Positions 9,098 to 29,563 of a stretch of DNA of 40,873 nucleotides are shown piece by piece; the first letter of the stretch is position 1; each line of letters begins with the position of its first letter. Where the stretch lies: the IMG/VR virus record IMGVR_UViG_2609460344_000022, one strand, 5' to 3'. Position numbers and translations under genes: made by a program. The notes beneath the pieces are model-generated. The model searched no databases, was not told where the DNA came from, and was given only the letters and a program-made list of their open reading frames with translations. Source of the DNA: a virus (Duplodnaviria > Heunggongvirae > Uroviricota > Caudoviricetes).

Positions 9098-10144
9098 TTA
9101 GTTATCCTTTAATAACCTATACAGTTTTGTAGGGGTACATCCTGAGGATATTGTTAAGTTCGTAGCACGCCTTTTCCGCCCATCATCGTATAAACGAAAA
9201 CCAGTAGTAGACGAATTTTCTGCGTCAAAAACTATAGACAGTATAGCGTCCCCAGACTTTTTTTGCCATTCGCATGTGCCGTTAGTTGGTTTCGTCATCT
9301 GTAGACGCCAGTCAAGAACGCCATCACTTATAGCTGAGAGATCGTTTAGTACATCTAGTACTGATTGATATCTTTCATTTGGATCTACATGAATGCATTT
9401 GTTTACTATTGTTATCAATTTTTTATGTATATGGGGAGGATATTCTTTTAATGGATAGCAGCCATTAATTATCGACTCTCTGAGTTGTTCAATCGTGCTA
9501 AATGCAGATCTTTCTCTTTCAAAATTATCATGTCCAACACACATTCTATATATGGTTAATCCTGCCTGATATATGTCATATGTGAAATTATAATCATTTG
9601 TTGATAAAGAAAAATATTCCGGTGGCACATGAAAATGATATCCAAACTCAGGCGCAGCTCTCGATTCCTCATTGACTAACTGAGATAATCCAAAGTCAGA
9701 TAGCATGGCCTCATTTCTGTTTGATATCATGATGTTATTAGGTTTTATATCAAAATGCATAAGACCTTTTGAGTGTATATGATAAAGTCCACTTAAAAAT
9801 TGAATAGAATACCGTATTATCTCCCTGCTTGTAAGATTATTTTTTTTCATTAATTGGTTTAGCGAACCATTATGATAAAATGGCATGGCTATATAGATAT
9901 TGCTCTCACATTGAGCAGCATACTGAACTTGCACAATATTTGGATGTGCATGTTTATAGAGAAGCCTTGCTTCATTAAAGTAGTCGTCGTGGTTAGTGTT
10001 TTCTTTTTTTTCTATTTCTTTAATCACCAAGTCATGAGCTAGGTGTCTGTCATGAGCCAGATATACTTTTGAAAAACAACCCTGTTCTTCTAGATCACGA
10101 ATCCATTCGAATTCTACATCAGCTCTTTTGTATGGAGTTAGCAT
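9098..10144 (-). CDS. Eukaryotic-like Ser/Thr protein kinase (Stk-like)
   Basis: 348 aa; catalytic loop HFDIKPNN, DFG motif (SDFGLS), beta3 Lys (VIKEI); strongly AT-rich; located between cI and pL. Confidence 0.8.
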   Translation of the reverse strand: MLTPYKRADVEFEWIRDLEEQGCFSKVYLAHDRHLAHDLVIKEIEKKENTNHDDYFNEARLLYKHAHPNIVQVQYAAQCESNIYIAMPFYHNGSLNQLMKKNNLTSREIIRYSIQFLSGLYHIHSKGLMHFDIKPNNIMISNRNEAMLSDFGLSQLVNEESRAAPEFGYHFHVPPEYFSLSTNDYNFTYDIYQAGLTIYRMCVGHDNFERERSAFSTIEQLRESIINGCYPLKEYPPHIHKKLITIVNKCIHVDPNERYQSVLDVLNDLSAISDGVLDWRLQMTKPTNGTCEWQKKSGDAILSIVFDAENSSTTGFRLYDDGRKRRATNLTISSGCTPTKLYRLLKDN

Positions 10145-18797: not shown

Positions 18798-18908
18798 TTG
18801 ACAACGTCGCGTGTTCGGGGCTATATTCCTCACGCGCCAGCAAAACCTGGCGTCGGGATTAGCACCCCGGATATCGAAACGGTGCATAACCGCGCTGGCG
18901 GTTTTTTT
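18798..18908 (+). ncRNA. Promoter + ~75-nt structured RNA + intrinsic terminator (copy 1)
   Basis: TTGACA-N18-TATATT (18798-18827); hairpins CGCCAG-CAAAAC-CTGGCG and AACCGC-GCTG-GCGGTT followed by TTTTTTT (18888-18908). Confidence 0.45.
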
Positions 18909-19072
18909 ATGCGCTAAGCACAGTCACATTCGCGATTTATGGCGGGCTGTGTGGGGGAGCCGAAAGGCTCGCCGGATGTTTCGACCGGTAGTGCTAACCC
19001 CGCACAGTTCGCCACCACGATGATTAGCACCTGACGGTGGCGAGGTAAAAATTATCGAAACGCGAGGTCATT

Positions 19073-20382: not shown

Positions 20383-20497
20383 TTGACGTGATGATTTATT
20401 CGGGGCTATATTCCTCACGCGCCAGCAAAATCTGGCGTCGGGATTGGCGTCCTGGATAGAGACCGCGACAGATACACGCCGCGAGCGTGTTTTTTAT
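20383..20497 (+). ncRNA. Promoter + ~75-nt structured RNA + intrinsic terminator (copy 2)
   Basis: TTGACG-N18-TATATT (20383-20412); hairpin CGCCAG-CAAAAT-CTGGCG; terminator ACACGC-CGCGA-GCGTGT + TTTTTTATT (20474-20499). Confidence 0.45.
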
Positions 20498-20656
20498 TGT
20501 CGTATGCACGCGCACATCTGAATTATGGTGGGCTGTGTGGGGGCGGAGAGATCCGCGCCGGTCGGTTTCCCGGTTACGCCAACCCTGCACAGTTCACCAC
20601 CAGACGATTGGCGTCGTCGGTGGTGAGTTATTAAGAAACCACTCGAGGGCGTCATT

Positions 20657-21340
20657 ATGACAACTCAAATCTCTGTTGAAACACTCTCCACGATTACTTA
20701 CAAGCAGATCCCCGTTATCACTACCGAACTTTTGGCGCACCTTTACGGCACAGAAGCTATTCGTATTCGCCAGAATCACCACGAAAACAAAGGTCGTTTC
20801 ATTGAGGAAAAACACTTCTTCAAACTTGAAGGTGAAACTTTACGTGAGTTCAAGCACAGAGTAGCTTTTAACTACTCTGTGAAAATTGCCCGTAACGTTC
20901 GCTCCCTCATCCTCTGGACAGAACGAGGCGCAGCCCGTCACGCCAAAATGCTAGAAACCGATCAGGCGTGGGATGTGTTCGAAAAACTGGAAGACTGCTA
21001 TTTCAGCCAGTGCGAGAAAAATACTGGCAAACAAGAGAAGAAGCCCAACGGGCTTTCCGCAAAAGAAACAGACAGCCTTGTATGGCTGTGGGATTATGCC
21101 AACCGCTCACAGGCATTGTTCCGTGAGTTGTATCCCGCATTAAAACTGATTCAGTCTGGCTATTCCGGCATATGCCACGACTACGGCTATGAGTTCTCGT
21201 ATATCATCGGGAGGGCGAGGGGCGTTTTAATTAATCACACGCGGGATATAGATATTTATGAGCCTGACGGGCCGACGAACCTTCTGGCATGGGAAAGGCT
21301 TAAGAACAAAGAGTTGCCGCCTTCACTGCATCGCTACTGA
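20657..21340 (+). CDS. ORF6N-domain antirepressor-like protein (paralog 2)
   Basis: 227 aa; N-terminal ~120 aa highly similar to paralog 1, C-terminus divergent. Confidence 0.6.
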
Positions 21341-21408
21341 CAATTGACAACTTAACAAACCCAGCTTCGGCTGGGTTTTTTATTGCTGAATTTTCAATAT
21401 GAGAGGAC

Positions 21409-22137
21409 ATGACAATGAATGAGCTGATAAATAGCAGCATCATCAAAATGACCAGCATTGAAATCGCTGAGTTGGTGGGGAGTCGTCCAGATAACGTAAA
21501 AATATCAATAGAGCGCCTGGCTGAATCTGGAGTTATTCAACTTCCTGCATTGCAGGTTTTCGAAAAAATCAATAACTTAGGACTGCGCCGTAGTGTCGAG
21601 GCTTACGTCTTCGAAGGCGAACAAGGTAAGCGAGACAGCATTATTGTCGTCGCCCAATTGTCGCCGGAATTCACCGCTCGTCTTGTTGACCGTTGGCGAG
21701 AGCTTGAAGGGGCAACCGCGAAAATACCACAAACCTTTTCTGAGGCATTGCGCCTTGCGGCCGACCTTGAAGACCAGAAGGCTGAACTGGAGAAACAGCT
21801 TGCTCTCGCAGCACCTAAAGTTGAGTTTGCCGATCGAGTTGGCGAGGCCAGCGGAATTTTGATTGGAAACTTTGCAAAGGTTGTTGGTATTGGTCCAAAC
21901 AAACTGTTTGCGTGGATGCGCGATCACAAAATCCTTATTGCTTCAGGTTCCCGGCGCAATGTGCCAATGCAGGAATATATGGATCGCGGCTATTTCACAG
22001 TGAAAGAAACAGCGGTCAATACAAATCACGGAATACAGATCTCGTTCACCACAAAAATCACCGGGCGTGGTCAACAGTGGCTGACCAGAAAGCCGCTCGA
22101 TAACGGAATGCTGAAAGTAACAGGGGAGGCTGCTTAA
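21409..22137 (+). CDS. Rha-family regulator / antirepressor (KilA-C/ANT C-terminal domain)
   Basis: 242 aa; N-terminal 'MTSIEIAELVGSRPDNV' Rha-like HTH; C-terminal '...EFADRVG...KVVGIGPNKLFAWMRDHKIL' antirepressor-type domain. Confidence 0.65.
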   Translation: MTMNELINSSIIKMTSIEIAELVGSRPDNVKISIERLAESGVIQLPALQVFEKINNLGLRRSVEAYVFEGEQGKRDSIIVVAQLSPEFTARLVDRWRELEGATAKIPQTFSEALRLAADLEDQKAELEKQLALAAPKVEFADRVGEASGILIGNFAKVVGIGPNKLFAWMRDHKILIASGSRRNVPMQEYMDRGYFTVKETAVNTNHGIQISFTTKITGRGQQWLTRKPLDNGMLKVTGEAA

Positions 22138-22427
22138 TGGCTAACCTACGCAAAGAAGCGCGCGGCAGAGAATGCCAGGTACGGATTTACGGCGTATGCA
22201 ATGGCAATCCTGAAACGACAGTTCTGGCACATTACCGGATGGCTGGAATTTGCGGAACGGGAATGAAGCCTGACGACCTGATCGGTGCATGGGCTTGTAG
22301 TGACTGCCACGCGGAGATCGACCGACGCACCCGAATTCTCGACAACAACGACGCCAGACTTTACCACCTGGAAGGCGTGATCAGGACGCAGGCGATATTG
22401 CTGAAGGAGGGGAAGATTAAGTCATGA
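22137..22427 (+). CDS. DUF1364 (YbcO-like) Cys/His-rich protein
   Basis: 96 aa; resembles recalled DLP12 YbcO (MANLRK.ARGRECQVRI.GVCNGNPET.VLAH...CSDCH.EIDRR); ATGA overlap with neighbours. Confidence 0.65.
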   Translation: MANLRKEARGRECQVRIYGVCNGNPETTVLAHYRMAGICGTGMKPDDLIGAWACSDCHAEIDRRTRILDNNDARLYHLEGVIRTQAILLKEGKIKS

Positions 22428-22786
22428 ATGAATATGAGTTTGTGCTTCCCTGGCCGCCGACGGTGAATACCTACTGGCGAAGACGGGGAAGCCAGTACTA
22501 CATCAGCGATAAAGGCCAGAAATACCGAAAAGACGTACAGCAAATCATCCGGCAACTCAGATTAGACATTTTCACTAAATCACGACTTCGCATCACAATT
22601 ATTGCTGAACCACCAGATTCCCGCCGTCGCGACCTCGATAACATCCTGAAAGGTTTACTCGACTCTCTTATCCACGCCGGATTTGCGGACGACGACGAGC
22701 AATTCGATGACATTCGCGTAATTCGCGGCGTGAAAGTGCCTGGCGGTAGAGTGGGGATAAAAATCACCGAACTGGAGAACATTTGA
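22424..22786 (+). CDS. rusA: RusA-type Holliday junction resolvase
   Basis: 120 aa; 'LPWPP..N.Y.R...............R.DLDN..K...D.L..AGF..DD.Q' pattern matching recalled RusA. Confidence 0.85.
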   Translation: MNEYEFVLPWPPTVNTYWRRRGSQYYISDKGQKYRKDVQQIIRQLRLDIFTKSRLRITIIAEPPDSRRRDLDNILKGLLDSLIHAGFADDDEQFDDIRVIRGVKVPGGRVGIKITELENI

Positions 22787-22980
22787 TGAATGCTAAAATT
22801 CAAACGATACCTGAATTACTGATCTGCACCAGGGGAAATCAGACAGAAGTCGCCAGAATACTGAACTGCAATCGTGCTACAGTCAGAAAATACATTGATG
22901 ATAAAGATGCGAAAAAGCACGCCGTCGTCAATGGCGTCCTTATGGTTCATCGCGGATGGGGTAAAGATACTGATGCGTGA
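22783..22980 (+). CDS. ninH: NinH-like protein
   Basis: 65 aa; '[42 protein letters not shown]' resembles recalled lambda NinH. Confidence 0.7.
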
Positions 22981-23407
22981 TATCCGGCAGGTTCTTGAGC
23001 GCTGGGGGGCATGGGCGGTAAATAACTATGAGGATGTTACATGGTCGCCCATTGCTGCCGGATTTAAGGGACTGATCCCCGAAAAAGTAAAATCACGTCC
23101 ACAGTGCTGTGACGATGATGCGATGGTGATATGCGGGTGCATAGCCCGCCTTTACCGGAACAATCGCGATCTGCATGACTTGCTGGTTGATTACTACGTG
23201 TTGGGGGAGACGTTCATGGCGCTGGCACGGAAACATGGGTGCTCTGACACCTGTATAGGTAAACGCCTTCACAAAGCGGAGGGGATTGTTGAAGGCATGC
23301 TGATGATGCTGGGAGTGAGGCTTGAGATGGATCGGTATGTTGAGCGTGAATTGCCGGGAGGGAGAAGCTCTGTATTTTATCAGCGAAAAAATAGTTTACG
23401 ATCGTAA
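22973..23407 (+). CDS. Q: Late-gene antiterminator Q (phage 21/82 type)
   Basis: 144 aa from ATG 22973; '[49 protein letters not shown]' matches recalled Q82 family. Confidence 0.8.
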
Positions 23408-23439
23408 AAATCTGCATATCATGATAAGAGTGGTTACAT

Positions 23440-23472
23440 TGCCACGCAGCCGAACCCGCCGATGCGCGGGTT
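23440..23472 (+). terminator. Intrinsic terminator downstream of Q
   Basis: CCCGC-CGATG-GCGGG hairpin followed by TTTTTTT. Confidence 0.55.
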
Positions 23473-23651
23473 TTTTTGTACCCAGAATCCTGTGAGCTAT
23501 ACGGAAAGTACACAGAAAGGAAGGTACGACCGCAATTAATAACAAAATCTTAAAAATCTCATATGGCACTATTAGTTTTCTAAATATTGTATATTTTAAG
23601 TATTGCAGGATAACCCTGTAACGAAGTTTGCGTAACAGCATTTTGCTCTAC

Positions 23652-23690
23652 GAGTTTGCCAGCCTCCCCTGGTGGCTGGCTTTTTTTGTA
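23652..23690 (+). terminator. Candidate tR' terminator of the late-promoter leader RNA
   Basis: GCCAGCC-TCCCCTG-GTGGCTGGC hairpin + TTTTTTT about 200 nt downstream of the first terminator; AT-rich promoter-like sequence (tattgtatatttt) between them. Confidence 0.5.
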
Positions 23691-24172
23691 TCCGTTCAAC
23701 GGGAATGTTACATACCTCACAATTAAGTCAGTTGAATGTTGTCTGCCCGGATGAGAATTTGTTAGAAAAAACTGCATGGTGAATCCCCCTGAGCGGAGGG
23801 GCGACTGGTGACGGTATAATCTCTGATTATCAAAACGAGAATGACGCGGGTTTAGTGGCACCGGGCTGAACTCACCGGGAGGCACCCGGCACCATGCAAT
23901 GGCACATAGCGCCACTCTCCAGCCCCTCTCCGGAGGGGCTTTCTTATGGACAAAAAAGCCCGCGCTGGGAGACGCGGGCGGCAAGGAATGAACAATGAAA
24001 CGTGAAGTAATATTTCAGCTGGCGAATAATACCCCATAGTAATCACTCTGCGCAACTGCGCGACCTTTTTCGAATTGCGGGCTGTAGTCTCCCTTCTGCC
24101 ATTGTCCTGTAACTTCCGGACTTCAGCCCGCTCCTTATTTTACTCACAATATTATCCCGGCCGGGAGGATTC

Positions 24173-26083
24173 ATGGCATTTAAACACTATGATGTTGTCA
24201 GGGCGGCGTCGCCGTCAGACCTTGCGAAACGAATAACTCAAAAACTGAAGGAAGGGTGGCAGCCTTATGGTAGTGCGCTGATTTCGACAGCTGGTTATGG
24301 TGCGGAGTTCATCCAGCCAGTTGTGAGTGAGGGGAGCATCTCATCACCAGAGGAGCCAGGCAACCGTCCGACGACCTCAGCGCCTTCTGTTGCGCCAGAA
24401 TATTACTATGTGATCGCGCTTGCTGGTCAGTCCAATGGTATGTCATACGGTGAGGGACTGCCATTACCGGATACATTCGACAGCCCTGATCCACGTATTA
24501 AACAGTTAGCGCGTCGCAGTACGGTGACACCGGGCGGTGCAGCATGCAAATATAACGACATCATTCCGGCGGACCATTGTCTGCATGATGTGCAGGACAT
24601 GAGCCGTCTTAACCATCCGAAAGCGGACCTGTCAAAGGGGCAGTACGGAACCGTGGGGCAGGGGCTGCATATCGCCAAAAAACTGCTGCCGTTTATACCG
24701 GCGAATGCGGGCATTCTGCTGGTTCCGTGCTGTCGTGGTGGTTCAGCGTTCACCACCGGAGCTGATGGCACATACAGTGACGCGAGTGGCGCCTCGGAGA
24801 ATTCAACCCGCTGGGGTGTGGACAAGCCGCTGTATAAGGACCTTATCGGTCGAACAAAAGCGGCACTGGAGAAGAACCCGAAAAATGTGCTGTTTGCCGT
24901 GGTGTGGATGCAGGGGGAATTTGATTTTGGCGGTACGCCGGCAAATCATGCCGCACAGTTTGGTGCGCTGGTTGATAAATTCCGTGCAGACCTGGCGGAT
25001 ATGGCAGGCCAGTGCGTCGGTGGCTCTGCTGGCGGTGTTCCCTGGATATGCGGGGACACGACGTATTTCTGGAAGCAGAAGAACGAATCCACGTACCAGA
25101 CGGTGTACGGCAGCTATAAAAATAAAACGGAAAAGAATATCCATTTCGTACCGTTCATGACCGATGAGAACGGGGTGAATGTGCCGACGAACAAACCGGA
25201 AGAAGACCCGGACATTCCGGGTATCGGTTATTACGGTTCGAAATGGCGTGACAGCTCAGCCACCTGGACGTCACAGGACAGGGCGAGCCATTTCAGTTCA
25301 TGGGCTCGCCGTGGGATTATTTCCGACCGTCTGGCAACGGCGATTCTGAGCTGCGCGGGTAAGTCTTCTGCGTTTGTTAATGGTACTGCCGGGGTGGTTG
25401 TTCCAGACAGACCGGTTACCACCTCAGAGTCTGTAATTTTTTACGATGCCAAAAAAGCTACAGACAATCAGCTGAAACCCTATGGCTGGGACGGTGTGTA
25501 TGGCAGGCGCACACTGGTTGATGACAGCGGCAATAAAGCTCTGCGAATTGAGAAAAATAACAGCGCGAAATCCTGGTCAATGTACTGTGATATTGCTGCA
25601 GACAAGGCAAAACTTTTACTGGAAAAAGGCGGAGAAATTGCTGTCCGGTTTAAAATCCCCGAAAACGTCAATCTTGAGACAACCAGAAACAAGTATGCCT
25701 TTGGTTTGTACTGGCGAATAGCGGAATGGCCGGGTGAGGGTGGTGAAGGCCATCTGAGTTCTTTCTTTGTCCAGACAGATAAAGCCAGTATTAATGTTGC
25801 ATACCATCATACAGTTAATCAACAAAAAGAACTTGGCACGTTTGGCGCATTCGACCATGACTGGCATACGCTTGCATTTAAATTTAAGGGCAGTAACAGC
25901 ATTAATGTTACTCCGGTGCTTGATGGTGTGGATGGACAGGCGTTTGACCTGGTGAAATGGGCCAATACTGCTAATGGACTCAACAGGTTTGTCATTACGG
26001 ATATTACAGGTAGTGCAGAAACCTACCCTGTACTTATTGATACGGTGGAAGTTAAAGCAAACAAAGCTGGAGCAGCCGCATAA
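24173..26083 (+). CDS. NanS-p-like sialate O-acetylesterase (DUF1737 + SGNH/SASA domain)
   Basis: 636 aa; N-terminal DUF1737-like 'MAFKHYDVVRA...LKEGWQPYG'; esterase motif 'IALAGQSNGMSYGEG'; located between Q and the lysis genes. Confidence 0.7.
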   Translation: MAFKHYDVVRAASPSDLAKRITQKLKEGWQPYGSALISTAGYGAEFIQPVVSEGSISSPEEPGNRPTTSAPSVAPEYYYVIALAGQSNGMSYGEGLPLPDTFDSPDPRIKQLARRSTVTPGGAACKYNDIIPADHCLHDVQDMSRLNHPKADLSKGQYGTVGQGLHIAKKLLPFIPANAGILLVPCCRGGSAFTTGADGTYSDASGASENSTRWGVDKPLYKDLIGRTKAALEKNPKNVLFAVVWMQGEFDFGGTPANHAAQFGALVDKFRADLADMAGQCVGGSAGGVPWICGDTTYFWKQKNESTYQTVYGSYKNKTEKNIHFVPFMTDENGVNVPTNKPEEDPDIPGIGYYGSKWRDSSATWTSQDRASHFSSWARRGIISDRLATAILSCAGKSSAFVNGTAGVVVPDRPVTTSESVIFYDAKKATDNQLKPYGWDGVYGRRTLVDDSGNKALRIEKNNSAKSWSMYCDIAADKAKLLLEKGGEIAVRFKIPENVNLETTRNKYAFGLYWRIAEWPGEGGEGHLSSFFVQTDKASINVAYHHTVNQQKELGTFGAFDHDWHTLAFKFKGSNSINVTPVLDGVDGQAFDLVKWANTANGLNRFVITDITGSAETYPVLIDTVEVKANKAGAAA

Positions 26084-28379: not shown

Positions 28380-28961
28380 TCACTGGGTAAGCTCGTTTGG
28401 TTTTAAATGTCCGTCGAGAATCAGATTGTGATTTTCCCGATGCAGAACCAGTGTGCCCATATAATCAGGTTTAAATCTCCATCCATTCATTTTTTTTGCA
28501 ATTCTGGACAGACAGTGATTATGTGTGAAAATCACAGTAACATGATCTGATTTTGATATTTTAAGGATATTATTTACTGCGTTATCATCACATGTCGATA
28601 TGTCCGGAATAGTTGCTGTCTTACCTCCCGAAAAAAAAGTGGCTGTCTGCATTGTTCGGAGTGTGTCTGTAGAATAGAGACTGTAGTATGGAAACATTCT
28701 TCTGAATTTATCTCCATATTGTTGAGCTTTGTTAGCTCCGTTTACTGTGATTCCCTCATGTGCTGAAAGACATATTCTTTGGGAGCGATCGCATCTTTCC
28801 CCATGCCGGATGAGAAAAATAATGGGATGTTTCTGGTTAATCTCAGTGACATCGTTCACATCAAGTCTGACTGGAGTTCTTACAATGTATATGATGGATA
28901 CAGAAACGATTATGACAAGTAAAAATATAAGAAGAGATTTTGTTAGCGTTTGATTTAACAT
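28380..28961 (-). CDS. Ais/PmrG-like histidine phosphatase (putative LPS core heptose-phosphate phosphatase)
   Basis: 193 aa from ATG 28961 (AAGGGA SD); RHG motif 'IIFLIRHGERCDRSQRICLSAHEGITVNG' and 'VIFTHNHCLSRIAK...FKPDY' align with recalled E. coli Ais; N-terminal TM/signal; AT-rich; opposite strand to late genes. Confidence 0.75.
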   Translation of the reverse strand: MLNQTLTKSLLIFLLVIIVSVSIIYIVRTPVRLDVNDVTEINQKHPIIFLIRHGERCDRSQRICLSAHEGITVNGANKAQQYGDKFRRMFPYYSLYSTDTLRTMQTATFFSGGKTATIPDISTCDDNAVNNILKISKSDHVTVIFTHNHCLSRIAKKMNGWRFKPDYMGTLVLHRENHNLILDGHLKPNELTQ

Positions 28962-29563
28962 ATAAATTCCCTTGTCTGTGTTGAAAATGGGCATTATTAT
29001 GCGTAAATCTTATGTAATCCTTAAGGATTGTCTGACGTGGTGATATGACGCGAAATACAGTGGGTACACAGAATGCTGTGAACAACGACGAAATGGGCAT
29101 TGGTAGCGGTACTGGTGCTTTTTTTATTGGTTGGTTGCTCAAGTCTTGATAAAGCGCGTTAGCTTTTTGGTATTGCCTCTTAGGTCTGTAAAATTGCCGA
29201 CGGTGTCCGGCAGTGCATGCAGGGCTGATCGTCTATGAGAACAGAATATATTGCTAAAAATGAAGTGTGCGTCAATGCTTATAAAGCATGCAATTCTGTA
29301 TTTCTAACTATTCAATAAAATAAATTCTTTCTGTCGCAGTGAATATACAAATGTTGATCAGCGCTCGATGTGGCGACGGGTTTCTATATCAGGAGACTTT
29401 GGCATTTATCCGCGAGGCAGCCTATCTGGTGCTGTAGTGGAATGAAGCGGATATAACCTAAATAAGGTTAAACATTAATCAGACATGGCTCTGCTGTGTG
29501 AAATCTGAAAATTTACAGCAGTCATTGTGCATCAGTTTTTAACAGAGAACGTCAGAAGGTGAC

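Follow-up and report, generated by a model that had tools for sequence, protein, structure and literature searches.

Three described small RNA genes and an unoccupied cargo junction between Q and nanS-p in a stx-negative 933W-like prophage

We analyzed a 40,873-nucleotide (nt) stretch of viral DNA (Caudoviricetes; IMG/VR record IMGVR_UViG_2609460344_000022), referred to below as the window, and in it the interval from 23408 to 24172. This interval, or slot, is bounded by the stop codon of the antiterminator gene Q (23407) and the start codon of a gene for a 636-amino-acid (aa) sialate O-acetylesterase of the nanS-p type (24173). In phage 933W and in prophage Sp5 of Escherichia coli Sakai the corresponding order is Q933-PR'-StxS-tR', the tRNA genes ileZ-argN-argO, the Shiga toxin (Stx) genes stx2AB, the small RNA (sRNA) EcOnc27 with AsxR, and nanS-p. 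The original prediction for the window, made from the letters alone, was that the slot lacks both toxin and tRNA cargo and contains only hairpins. The absence of cargo was confirmed. ARAGORN found 0 tRNAs across the whole window, Rfam likewise gave no tRNA match in the window, the annotation of the identical prophage in E. coli FORC_069 contains no stx gene, and alignment left 933W positions 20962-22747 (tRNAs and stx2AB) with no counterpart in the window. That there are only hairpins is refuted, because genes were found in the slot by homology, the outcome that the prediction itself had named as contrary to it: a search of the slot yielded an STnc100-family sRNA gene, the StxS leader, and a minus-strand homologue of Hfq-bound RNAs. 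The slot hairpins are the terminators of three described RNA genes (StxS, STnc100/EcOnc27, and EcOnc08/21/42). The slot is a compact array of these three genes with a vacant cargo site of 14 nt, an ordinary and known arrangement.

A consensus scan detected 7 terminator-like sites in the slot, versus 1.8 ± 1.2 in shuffled sequence, and the slot hairpins folded better than shuffles (z from -2.8 to -4.2). Among these sites are the two plus-strand terminators and the minus-strand terminator that had been predicted (Table 1), and a further plus-strand site at 23921-23940. The first plus-strand hairpin, in a fold of -21.9 kcal/mol (z = -3.05), is annotated in 933W as a "possible rho-independent terminator". 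The second has a fold of -19.8 kcal/mol (z = -4.19), and both coincide with the two terminators annotated in 933W.

The Q gene was expected to be of the 21/82 type, and its product belongs to the Q21 family. The nearest solved structure is that of Q21 (PDB chains 6P18 and 6JNX, E = 1.3e-7). The block from Q through PR' to tR' (22836-23689) is 95.8% identical to 933W DNA, and the PR' sequence is identical to the 933W pR' (7517-7544 of L002, the 933W segment compared here). Sy et al. (2020, PMC7547250) report that PR' is constitutively active in lysogens and that its transcript terminates 258 nt downstream at tR', the 3' end of this long form, StxS_L, having been mapped by Term-seq. For the Sakai copies they describe RNase E cleavage between GU and AUU, which yields a stable, Hfq-bound StxS; in O157 Sakai this sRNA activates rpoS translation and represses stx1, and StxS1 and StxS2 are 94% identical. 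In the window, the 5' end of StxS was placed at ~23428 from the -10 hexamer. From there to the U-tract at ~23687 the distance is ~258 nt, which fits the published length, and a GUAUU motif lies at about +173. Over 23428-23687 there are 8 substitutions relative to 933W and to the stx-negative phage vB_EcoP_phi296 (phi296), and the short-form stretch departs from that of 933W only in the U-tail and at 2 nt of the terminator loop. Since the distance from PR' to the U-tract, the GUAUU motif and the near-identity match the published StxS, the second terminator is tR', as the original prediction had guessed. Judged by its sequence, the AT-rich two-hairpin stretch is an intact stxS gene, and such near-identity predicts that its product would bind Hfq, activate rpoS and repress stx1. 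A sub-threshold Rfam match to RprA (27.9 bits) was observed over 23574-23690 on the plus strand, and sub-threshold matches to Qrr, VqmR and DsrA likewise lie on the StxS short form. The terminator and U-tail probably account for most of the score of these matches. The RprA-like match agrees with the published finding that StxS acts at the rpoS site of the host sRNAs, and is consistent with StxS pairing to the rpoS leader where RprA and DsrA do.

Downstream of the cargo site, the STnc100-family sRNA gene matched RF02076 over model positions 1-206 of 206, with 165.1 bits against a gathering score of 47 (E = 1.9e-37). A syntenic copy follows stx2B in 933W after 75 nt (L002 9628-9833), another follows the tRNAs in phi296, and the position after both Q and the moron site and before nanS-p is common to 933W, phi296, prophages Sp4 and Sp5 of Sakai, and strains 472 and AZ146. 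The Sakai copies are known as EcOnc27 in Sp5 and EcOnc05 in Sp4; EcOnc27 gives northern bands of 235 and 247 nt, of which the longer is Hfq-dependent (Tree et al. 2014, supplementary Table S2). The northern probes for EcOnc27 and EcOnc05 map within the STnc100 homologues. Other names in the literature are sRNA103 of EDL933 and, for a relative, PasD of enteropathogenic E. coli (EPEC). PasD1 and PasD2 (Zhu, Shabalina and Storz 2026 preprint) occupy the same position, after Q and before a sialate esterase, and PasD and the window STnc100 have in common the invariant GCAUGGUGAAUCC start as well as the first hairpin. The window copy, a canonical full-length STnc100, lacks the UGUGAG seed of PasD, which is the shorter RNA. 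Alignment of eight copies revealed an invariant GCATGGTGAATCC and, upstream of it, a conserved TTGACn (23732-23737 in the window); the mapped 5' end of PasD2 is the start of the GCATGGTGAATCC motif. These sequence features suggest that the STnc100 RNA may have its own promoter. An internal promoter at the perfect TATAAT of 23815-23820 was rejected, there being no -35 or TG element and no entry in the scan list. By analogy with EcOnc27 and EcOnc05 of Sakai, the window STnc100 would be expressed and associated with Hfq.

The GCCCGCG hairpin on the minus strand (fold of -16.9 kcal/mol) terminates the third RNA gene, the 5' end of which lies between 24144 and about 24220. Window positions 23866-24264 are 93.5% identical to Sakai Sp4, where the minus-strand peaks EcOnc08 and EcOnc21 from Hfq cross-linking and analysis of cDNA (CRAC) project onto window 23953-24025 and 24031-24116. 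The northern probe for EcOnc08/21/42 maps to 24025-24059 with 30 of 35 positions (5 mismatches). Probe sequences were used for mapping; the Sakai coordinates of Tree et al. are shifted by ~+135 at Sp5 and by ~0 at Sp4 relative to NC_002695.2. In EPEC, prophage PP6 is 92.7% identical to window 23866-24274, and the sRNA candidate "E2348C_1409.E2348C_1408.IGR" from RIL-seq (sequencing of interacting RNAs after their ligation; PMC8550237, Fig. S5) agrees with the 3' 51 nt of the window RNA at ~46 of 51 positions. This candidate is syntenic: it is encoded on the minus strand, flanked by a nanS-p-like gene and an STnc100 disrupted by an IS, and it pairs with several mRNAs via a proposed seed immediately 5' of its terminator (Pearl Mizrahi et al. 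2021, PMC8550237). The insertion sequence in PP6 of EPEC E2348/69 (L012 3112-4485) is ISEc13, which splits the STnc100 copy. Compared with EcOnc08/EcOnc21 of Sakai Sp4, EcOnc42 of Sp15 and the EPEC sRNA, the minus-strand region is 93% identical, with the same terminator and near-identical seed-proximal sequence.

The 3' ends of the two downstream RNAs meet at ~23951 (plus) and ~23950 (minus) in the window, and at 9833 (plus) and 9835 (minus) in 933W. Tree et al. (2014) explicitly describe convergent sRNAs between the moron and a conserved open reading frame (ORF), and the window shows this published layout. It is also that of Sakai Sp4, where EcOnc05 with EcOnc08/EcOnc21 are convergent Hfq-bound RNAs between the moron site and a nanS-p homologue; the upstream cargo of Sp4, an AraC-family gene and tRNAs, is unlike the window. 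The anti-sRNAs AsxR, AgvB and EcOnc03 (RF02703, RF02702) have the same position and strand, with the 3' end abutting the STnc100 terminator. AsxR of 933W, at 9835-9887 on the minus strand, directly follows the STnc100 terminator, and the window GCCCGCG hairpin is in exactly that position. Identity of the minus-strand element with AsxR or AgvB was nevertheless rejected: there was no Rfam match to either at E ≤ 10 within 23300-24300, the conserved 3' region of ~42 nt is absent, and alignment to the 933W AsxR showed only the U-tract and scattered positions in common. AsxR and AgvB are 51-60 nt long, versus ~271 nt for the Sakai homologue of the window RNA, and share no sequence or covariance-model similarity with it. 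An sRNA of ~60 nt starting near 24010 (TTGCGC-N18-TATTAT) was rejected as the sole form, as the probe maps upstream of it (24025-24059) and the Sakai EcOnc08/21 northern band is ~271 nt (Tree et al. 2014, supplementary Table S2). The sole minus-strand promoter-like site found by scanning is at 24179-24151. Whichever 5' end applies, this RNA runs antisense to the leader of nanS-p.

The remaining part of the slot is the junction between tR' and the STnc100 block. Homology to phi296 stops at 23689 and restarts at 23704. The phi296 group (vB_EcoP_phi296, phi315, phi367, TL-2011a and PPwrbA prophages, all stx-negative and Traversvirus-type) keeps at this point, between tR' and STnc100, a cargo of 469 bp without window equivalent, consisting of a methylase remnant and tRNA-Ile/Met(CAT), Arg(TCG) and Arg(TCT). 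Homology to 933W restarts at 23717, and the 1786-bp block of 933W (methylase remnant, pT, three tRNAs and stx2AB) is absent. The ileZ-argN-argO cluster, with or without stx, is found in 933W, phi296 and Sakai Sp5 exactly where the window has 14-27 nt. Of 5426 complete E. coli genomes, 682 matched a junction-spanning probe of 141 nt at its left flank, as did 291 phage records. The match broke at 23689 in ~590 genomes and in all 291 phage records; it continued without interruption in 90 of the 5426 genomes and in 0 of the 291 phage records. The 90 cargo-free genomes (95.7-100% identity) fall into several sequence classes and unrelated serotypes, and include O104:H4 outbreak strains (2011C-3493, C227-11, HUSEC2011), ML35, and O103, O111, O145 and O157 strains. 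A search with the exact 36-nt core found the full junction in 11 IMG/VR contigs.

A different cargo occupies the same junction in one genome, FHI_NMBU_10 (L010 2553-2893). It is a cassette of ~318 bp with a minus-strand DUF7661 gene, flanked by the imperfect direct repeats T7ATCTG and T6ATATCTG (T6-7AT(AT)CTG). Because the breakpoints are shared and this alternative cargo sits at the same point, the junction is a genuine hot spot, and the window carries its unoccupied form. The original prediction had offered an empty acceptor site as one option and had asked whether other isolates carry insertions there; phi296 (469 bp), 933W (1786 bp) and FHI_NMBU_10 (the DUF7661 cassette) do. The idea of an acceptor site is reasonable in that light, and what has to be given up is its extent: the truly empty stretch is ~14 nt and not 770 bp. 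Downstream of the cassette, FHI_NMBU_10 has two tandem STnc100-like copies with differing 5' flanks (L010 2871-3433). Cargo on the far side of STnc100 was seen in Ecol_AZ146, where an iraM anti-adapter gene lies between STnc100 and nanS-p (L008 2611-2946). Small DUF3927 ORFs occur just upstream of STnc100 or PasD in AZ146 and EPEC PP2.

Table 1. Positions of the features at the Q to nanS-p locus, numbered along the 40,873-nt window
Feature	Position	Strand	Basis or remark
Antiterminator Q, 933W allele, Q21 family	22973-23407	+	Pfam PF06530, E = 2.1e-50
Late promoter PR' (TTTACG-16-TATCAT)	23395-23422	+	Promoter scan; aligns with the pR' annotated in 933W
StxS long form, PR' transcript to tR', ~258 nt	23428-23687	+	tR' is the second hairpin, 23656-23686
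qut element	23436-23443	+	Assigned by homology to 933W qut (L002 7558-7565); stretch identical
First hairpin with U7, terminator-like, promoter-proximal, inside the StxS leader	23452-23480	+	Terminator scan
StxS short form, stable 3' sRNA after RNase E cleavage	23602-23687	+	GU/AUU motif at 23600-23604
Cargo insertion junction, unoccupied	23690-23703	.	14 nt between the tR' U-tract and the STnc100 block
STnc100-family sRNA gene with conserved 5' flank	23704-23951	+	Rfam model at 23746-23951
Hfq-type sRNA, homologue of EcOnc08/21/42 and of the EPEC E2348C_1409-1408 IGR sRNA	23950-24144	-	Terminator 23979-23958, then TTTTTT (U-tract)
nanS-p-type sialate O-acetylesterase	24173-26083	+	First protein-coding gene of the late operon; Pfam DUF1737, SASA, DUF6645

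Whole-window alignment supported the prediction of a toxin-free relative of 933W-like Stx phages: 19,547 of the 40,873 bp (~48%) are alignable with 933W, at 85-99% identity. The aligned blocks comprise exo-bet-gam, N-stk-cI (98%), roi, Q-PR'-tR' (96%), the first 1.2 kb of nanS-p (98.6%), holin and endolysin, and 9.5 kb of head and tail/morphogenesis genes from terminase to tail (92%). The esterase has the domain architecture of the Stx-phage NanS-p esterases in Pfam, and 24048-25345 is 98.6% identical to L0105 of 933W and the region upstream of it. The other gene products named in the prediction are all present as well: a P21 S-type holin, an endolysin (a lysozyme with a hydrophobic N-terminus), and a tail fibre with long collagen-like G-X-Y runs (39449-40642). 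The window thus has the features by which 933W-like phages are recognized, namely the Q-PR' module, nanS-p, P21-type lysis genes and short-tailed morphogenesis genes. It lacks those of a converting phage, which are stxAB downstream of PR' and the ileZ-argN-argO cluster.

At the locus itself the likeness to 933W and Sp5 extends to the Q allele, PR', qut, both terminators and StxS (~97% identical), to an STnc100-family sRNA directly before a convergent minus-strand sRNA and nanS-p, and to the lysis and morphogenesis modules. The window differs from 933W, beyond the missing block, in its diverged STnc100 and in a convergent RNA that is not AsxR. Closest to the slot is the phi296 group, with 96-97% identity on both sides of the junction, the same STnc100 allele and the same minus-strand RNA; its STnc100 has a 5' flank of another type than that of the window. 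The slot is 100% identical to the prophage in the FORC_069 chromosome. Each of its elements falls into a family known from the literature or from Rfam, and the identical sequence is present in many public genomes.

From these data we conclude, with high confidence, that the interval is the late-operon leader of a stx-negative, 933W-like (Sepvirinae-type) prophage and that it is filled by regulatory RNA genes, not vacant. Several observations weigh against this conclusion. The first hairpin with its U7, at +25 to +50 from the PR' start, should end much of the transcription before StxS is completed, and the available portions of the StxS paper (PMC7547250) make no mention of it. Its fold suggests efficient intrinsic termination, yet StxS has its published 3' end at the second terminator; the hairpin may act in pausing, Q loading or partial termination. 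Identity of the window STnc100 to the 933W copy amounts to only 73-79%, and the central part is unlike that of Sp4, so its targets need not match. In the minus-strand RNA, the seed has a 1-nt insertion relative to EPEC (CUUGCCG versus CUUGCG), and the promoter-like site at 24179-24151 would yield a transcript of ~195 nt, versus the northern band of ~271 nt for EcOnc08/21. Finally, homology, synteny, breakpoints and Rfam membership were read directly from the window, and all functional statements about the prophage, on expression, Hfq binding and targets, are carried over from published near-identical copies in Sakai, EDL933 or EPEC.

Two other readings of the slot deny it RNA genes. Under one of them, minus-strand small proteins are encoded there instead: an 81-aa ORF (23399-23641), a 65-aa ORF (23583-23777), and ORFs of 43 to 67 aa at 23855-24174. 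The first two match phrog_17306 (E = 1e-50) and phrog_28474 (E = 7e-50), a Shine-Dalgarno-like GGGGGA precedes the 65-aa ORF, as read directly from the sequence, and PHANOTATE calls such ORFs in phi296. Both PHROG families are of unknown function, and their matches may reflect repeated ORF calls on near-identical Stx-phage DNA. No slot ORF has a Pfam match, and PGAP marks the homologous ORFs of other genomes as partial, frameshifted or internally stopped pseudogenes, which means that the frames are not conserved. The ORFs run antisense to validated RNAs (StxS) and to terminator hairpins, and the 65-aa ORF spans the cargo junction, which is impossible in cargo-bearing relatives. We regard the slot ORFs as annotation artefacts and consider this reading very improbable. 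The idea of a functionally empty spacer, with terminators and chance hairpins between Q and nanS-p, could draw on the absence of tRNAs (ARAGORN) and of Pfam matches for the slot ORFs, and on the fact that PGAP annotates nothing in the slot of FORC_069. It is extremely hard to reconcile with a full-length STnc100 that scores 118 bits above the gathering threshold, a leader nearly identical to the experimentally characterized StxS, and a downstream half that is 92-93% identical to regions with Hfq-CRAC peaks, northern bands and RIL-seq chimeras. Parts of the slot are also present in 2526 of 5426 complete E. coli genomes. We attach almost no credence to an empty spacer.

The history of the junction leaves more room for argument. 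The cargo-free state could have arisen secondarily, by deletion in an ancestor that bore tRNAs or stx, which would make this a decayed converting phage and not one whose site was never occupied. Both flanks are 97-98% identical to phi296 and the difference is essentially the 469-bp block, which favours a recent deletion. The first 8 nt past the U-tract (GTATCCGT) are similar to those with which the methylase remnant of 933W and phi296 begins (ATGTCCGT), and the methylase-remnant state is widespread and old. In the opposite direction, the junction's 7 nt (TCAACGG) and the distinct STnc100 5' flank (AATGTTACATACC) are absent from phi296 and 933W. The AATGTTACATACC flank is common to FHI_NMBU_10, with its direct-repeat-flanked DUF7661 cassette, which favours an independent empty allele, and the empty junction recurs in several sequence classes (95.7-100% identity) across unrelated serotypes. 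A deletion is therefore a plausible account that we do not quite prefer. We advance more tentatively, and as rather unlikely, the proposal that the three "bookend" sRNAs are selected features of the 933W-like backbone even without cargo and that the junction is a genuine unoccupied Stx moron site, which cassettes enter at T-run/ATCTG microhomology. This mode of entry is suggested by the direct repeats that flank the DUF7661 cassette.

If the slot is a leader filled with RNA genes, its operation can be pictured as follows. In the lysogen, the constitutive PR' would produce the ~258-nt transcript that stops at tR' near 23687, and RNase E would trim it to the stable StxS sRNA. The STnc100-family sRNA would be made on the plus strand, from ~23704 or ~23746 to 23951, and the convergent RNA on the minus strand, from ~24144 or further to 23950. 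The intrinsic terminators of these two RNAs stand tail to tail, as those of EcOnc27 and AsxR do behind stx2B in 933W, and the minus-strand RNA would be antisense to the 5' leader of nanS-p. Upon induction, Q would load at qut and allow read-through of all plus-strand terminators into nanS-p and the lysis, head and tail genes. At the cargo site, relatives have the methylase remnant with ileZ-argN-argO, the same with stx, or a DUF7661 gene, and this prophage nothing.

Several features elsewhere in the window were recorded in passing. In the early region, a full-length sok antitoxin RNA (RF01794, 110 bits; 16783-16957, plus strand) adjoins a hokD-type toxin gene, and Doc-family and RelE/ParE-family toxin genes lie nearby, as annotated in the identical FORC_069 record. 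Two tandem modules of the P1/P7 type, at 18821-19019 and 20406-20604 on the plus strand, each comprise c4-a1b1 target sites, isrK and a C4 antisense RNA, all above the Rfam gathering thresholds. One of them precedes an ORF6N antirepressor-like gene and the other an Ant antirepressor gene; phi296 has a single such module, versus two in the window. Between the Rz-type lysis genes and terminase there is a 204-aa ORF on the minus strand (28380-28994), annotated in FORC_069 as lipopolysaccharide core heptose(II)-phosphate phosphatase. Its place, roughly that of bor in 933W, makes it look like a second cargo for lysogenic conversion. In the tail fibre, the collagen-like part at 40067-40642 (plus strand) contains near-perfect tandem repeats with a unit of ~20 aa in G-X-Y triplets, and is probably prone to length variation.

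None of these RNAs is annotated by PGAP, which leaves the interval apparently empty or filled with spurious ORFs; beyond correct annotation the significance of the finding is slight. Among the three, the minus-strand RNA has homologues supported by Hfq-CRAC and RIL-seq, yet it has no name, Rfam family or known function. Toxin-free relatives, too, possess the sRNAs that flank stx in converting phages, there with no cargo separating them, in keeping with the published view that regulatory RNAs bracket the moron site. To reconstruct the entry of tRNA, stx and other cassettes into 933W-like phages, the cargo-free junction could be used as a reference "empty site". If the proposed reading is true, a toxin-free prophage would supply its host with StxS and two more Hfq sRNAs, and this prophage, which O104:H4 outbreak strains also carry in addition to their Stx2a phage, could cross-regulate an Stx phage resident in the same host.

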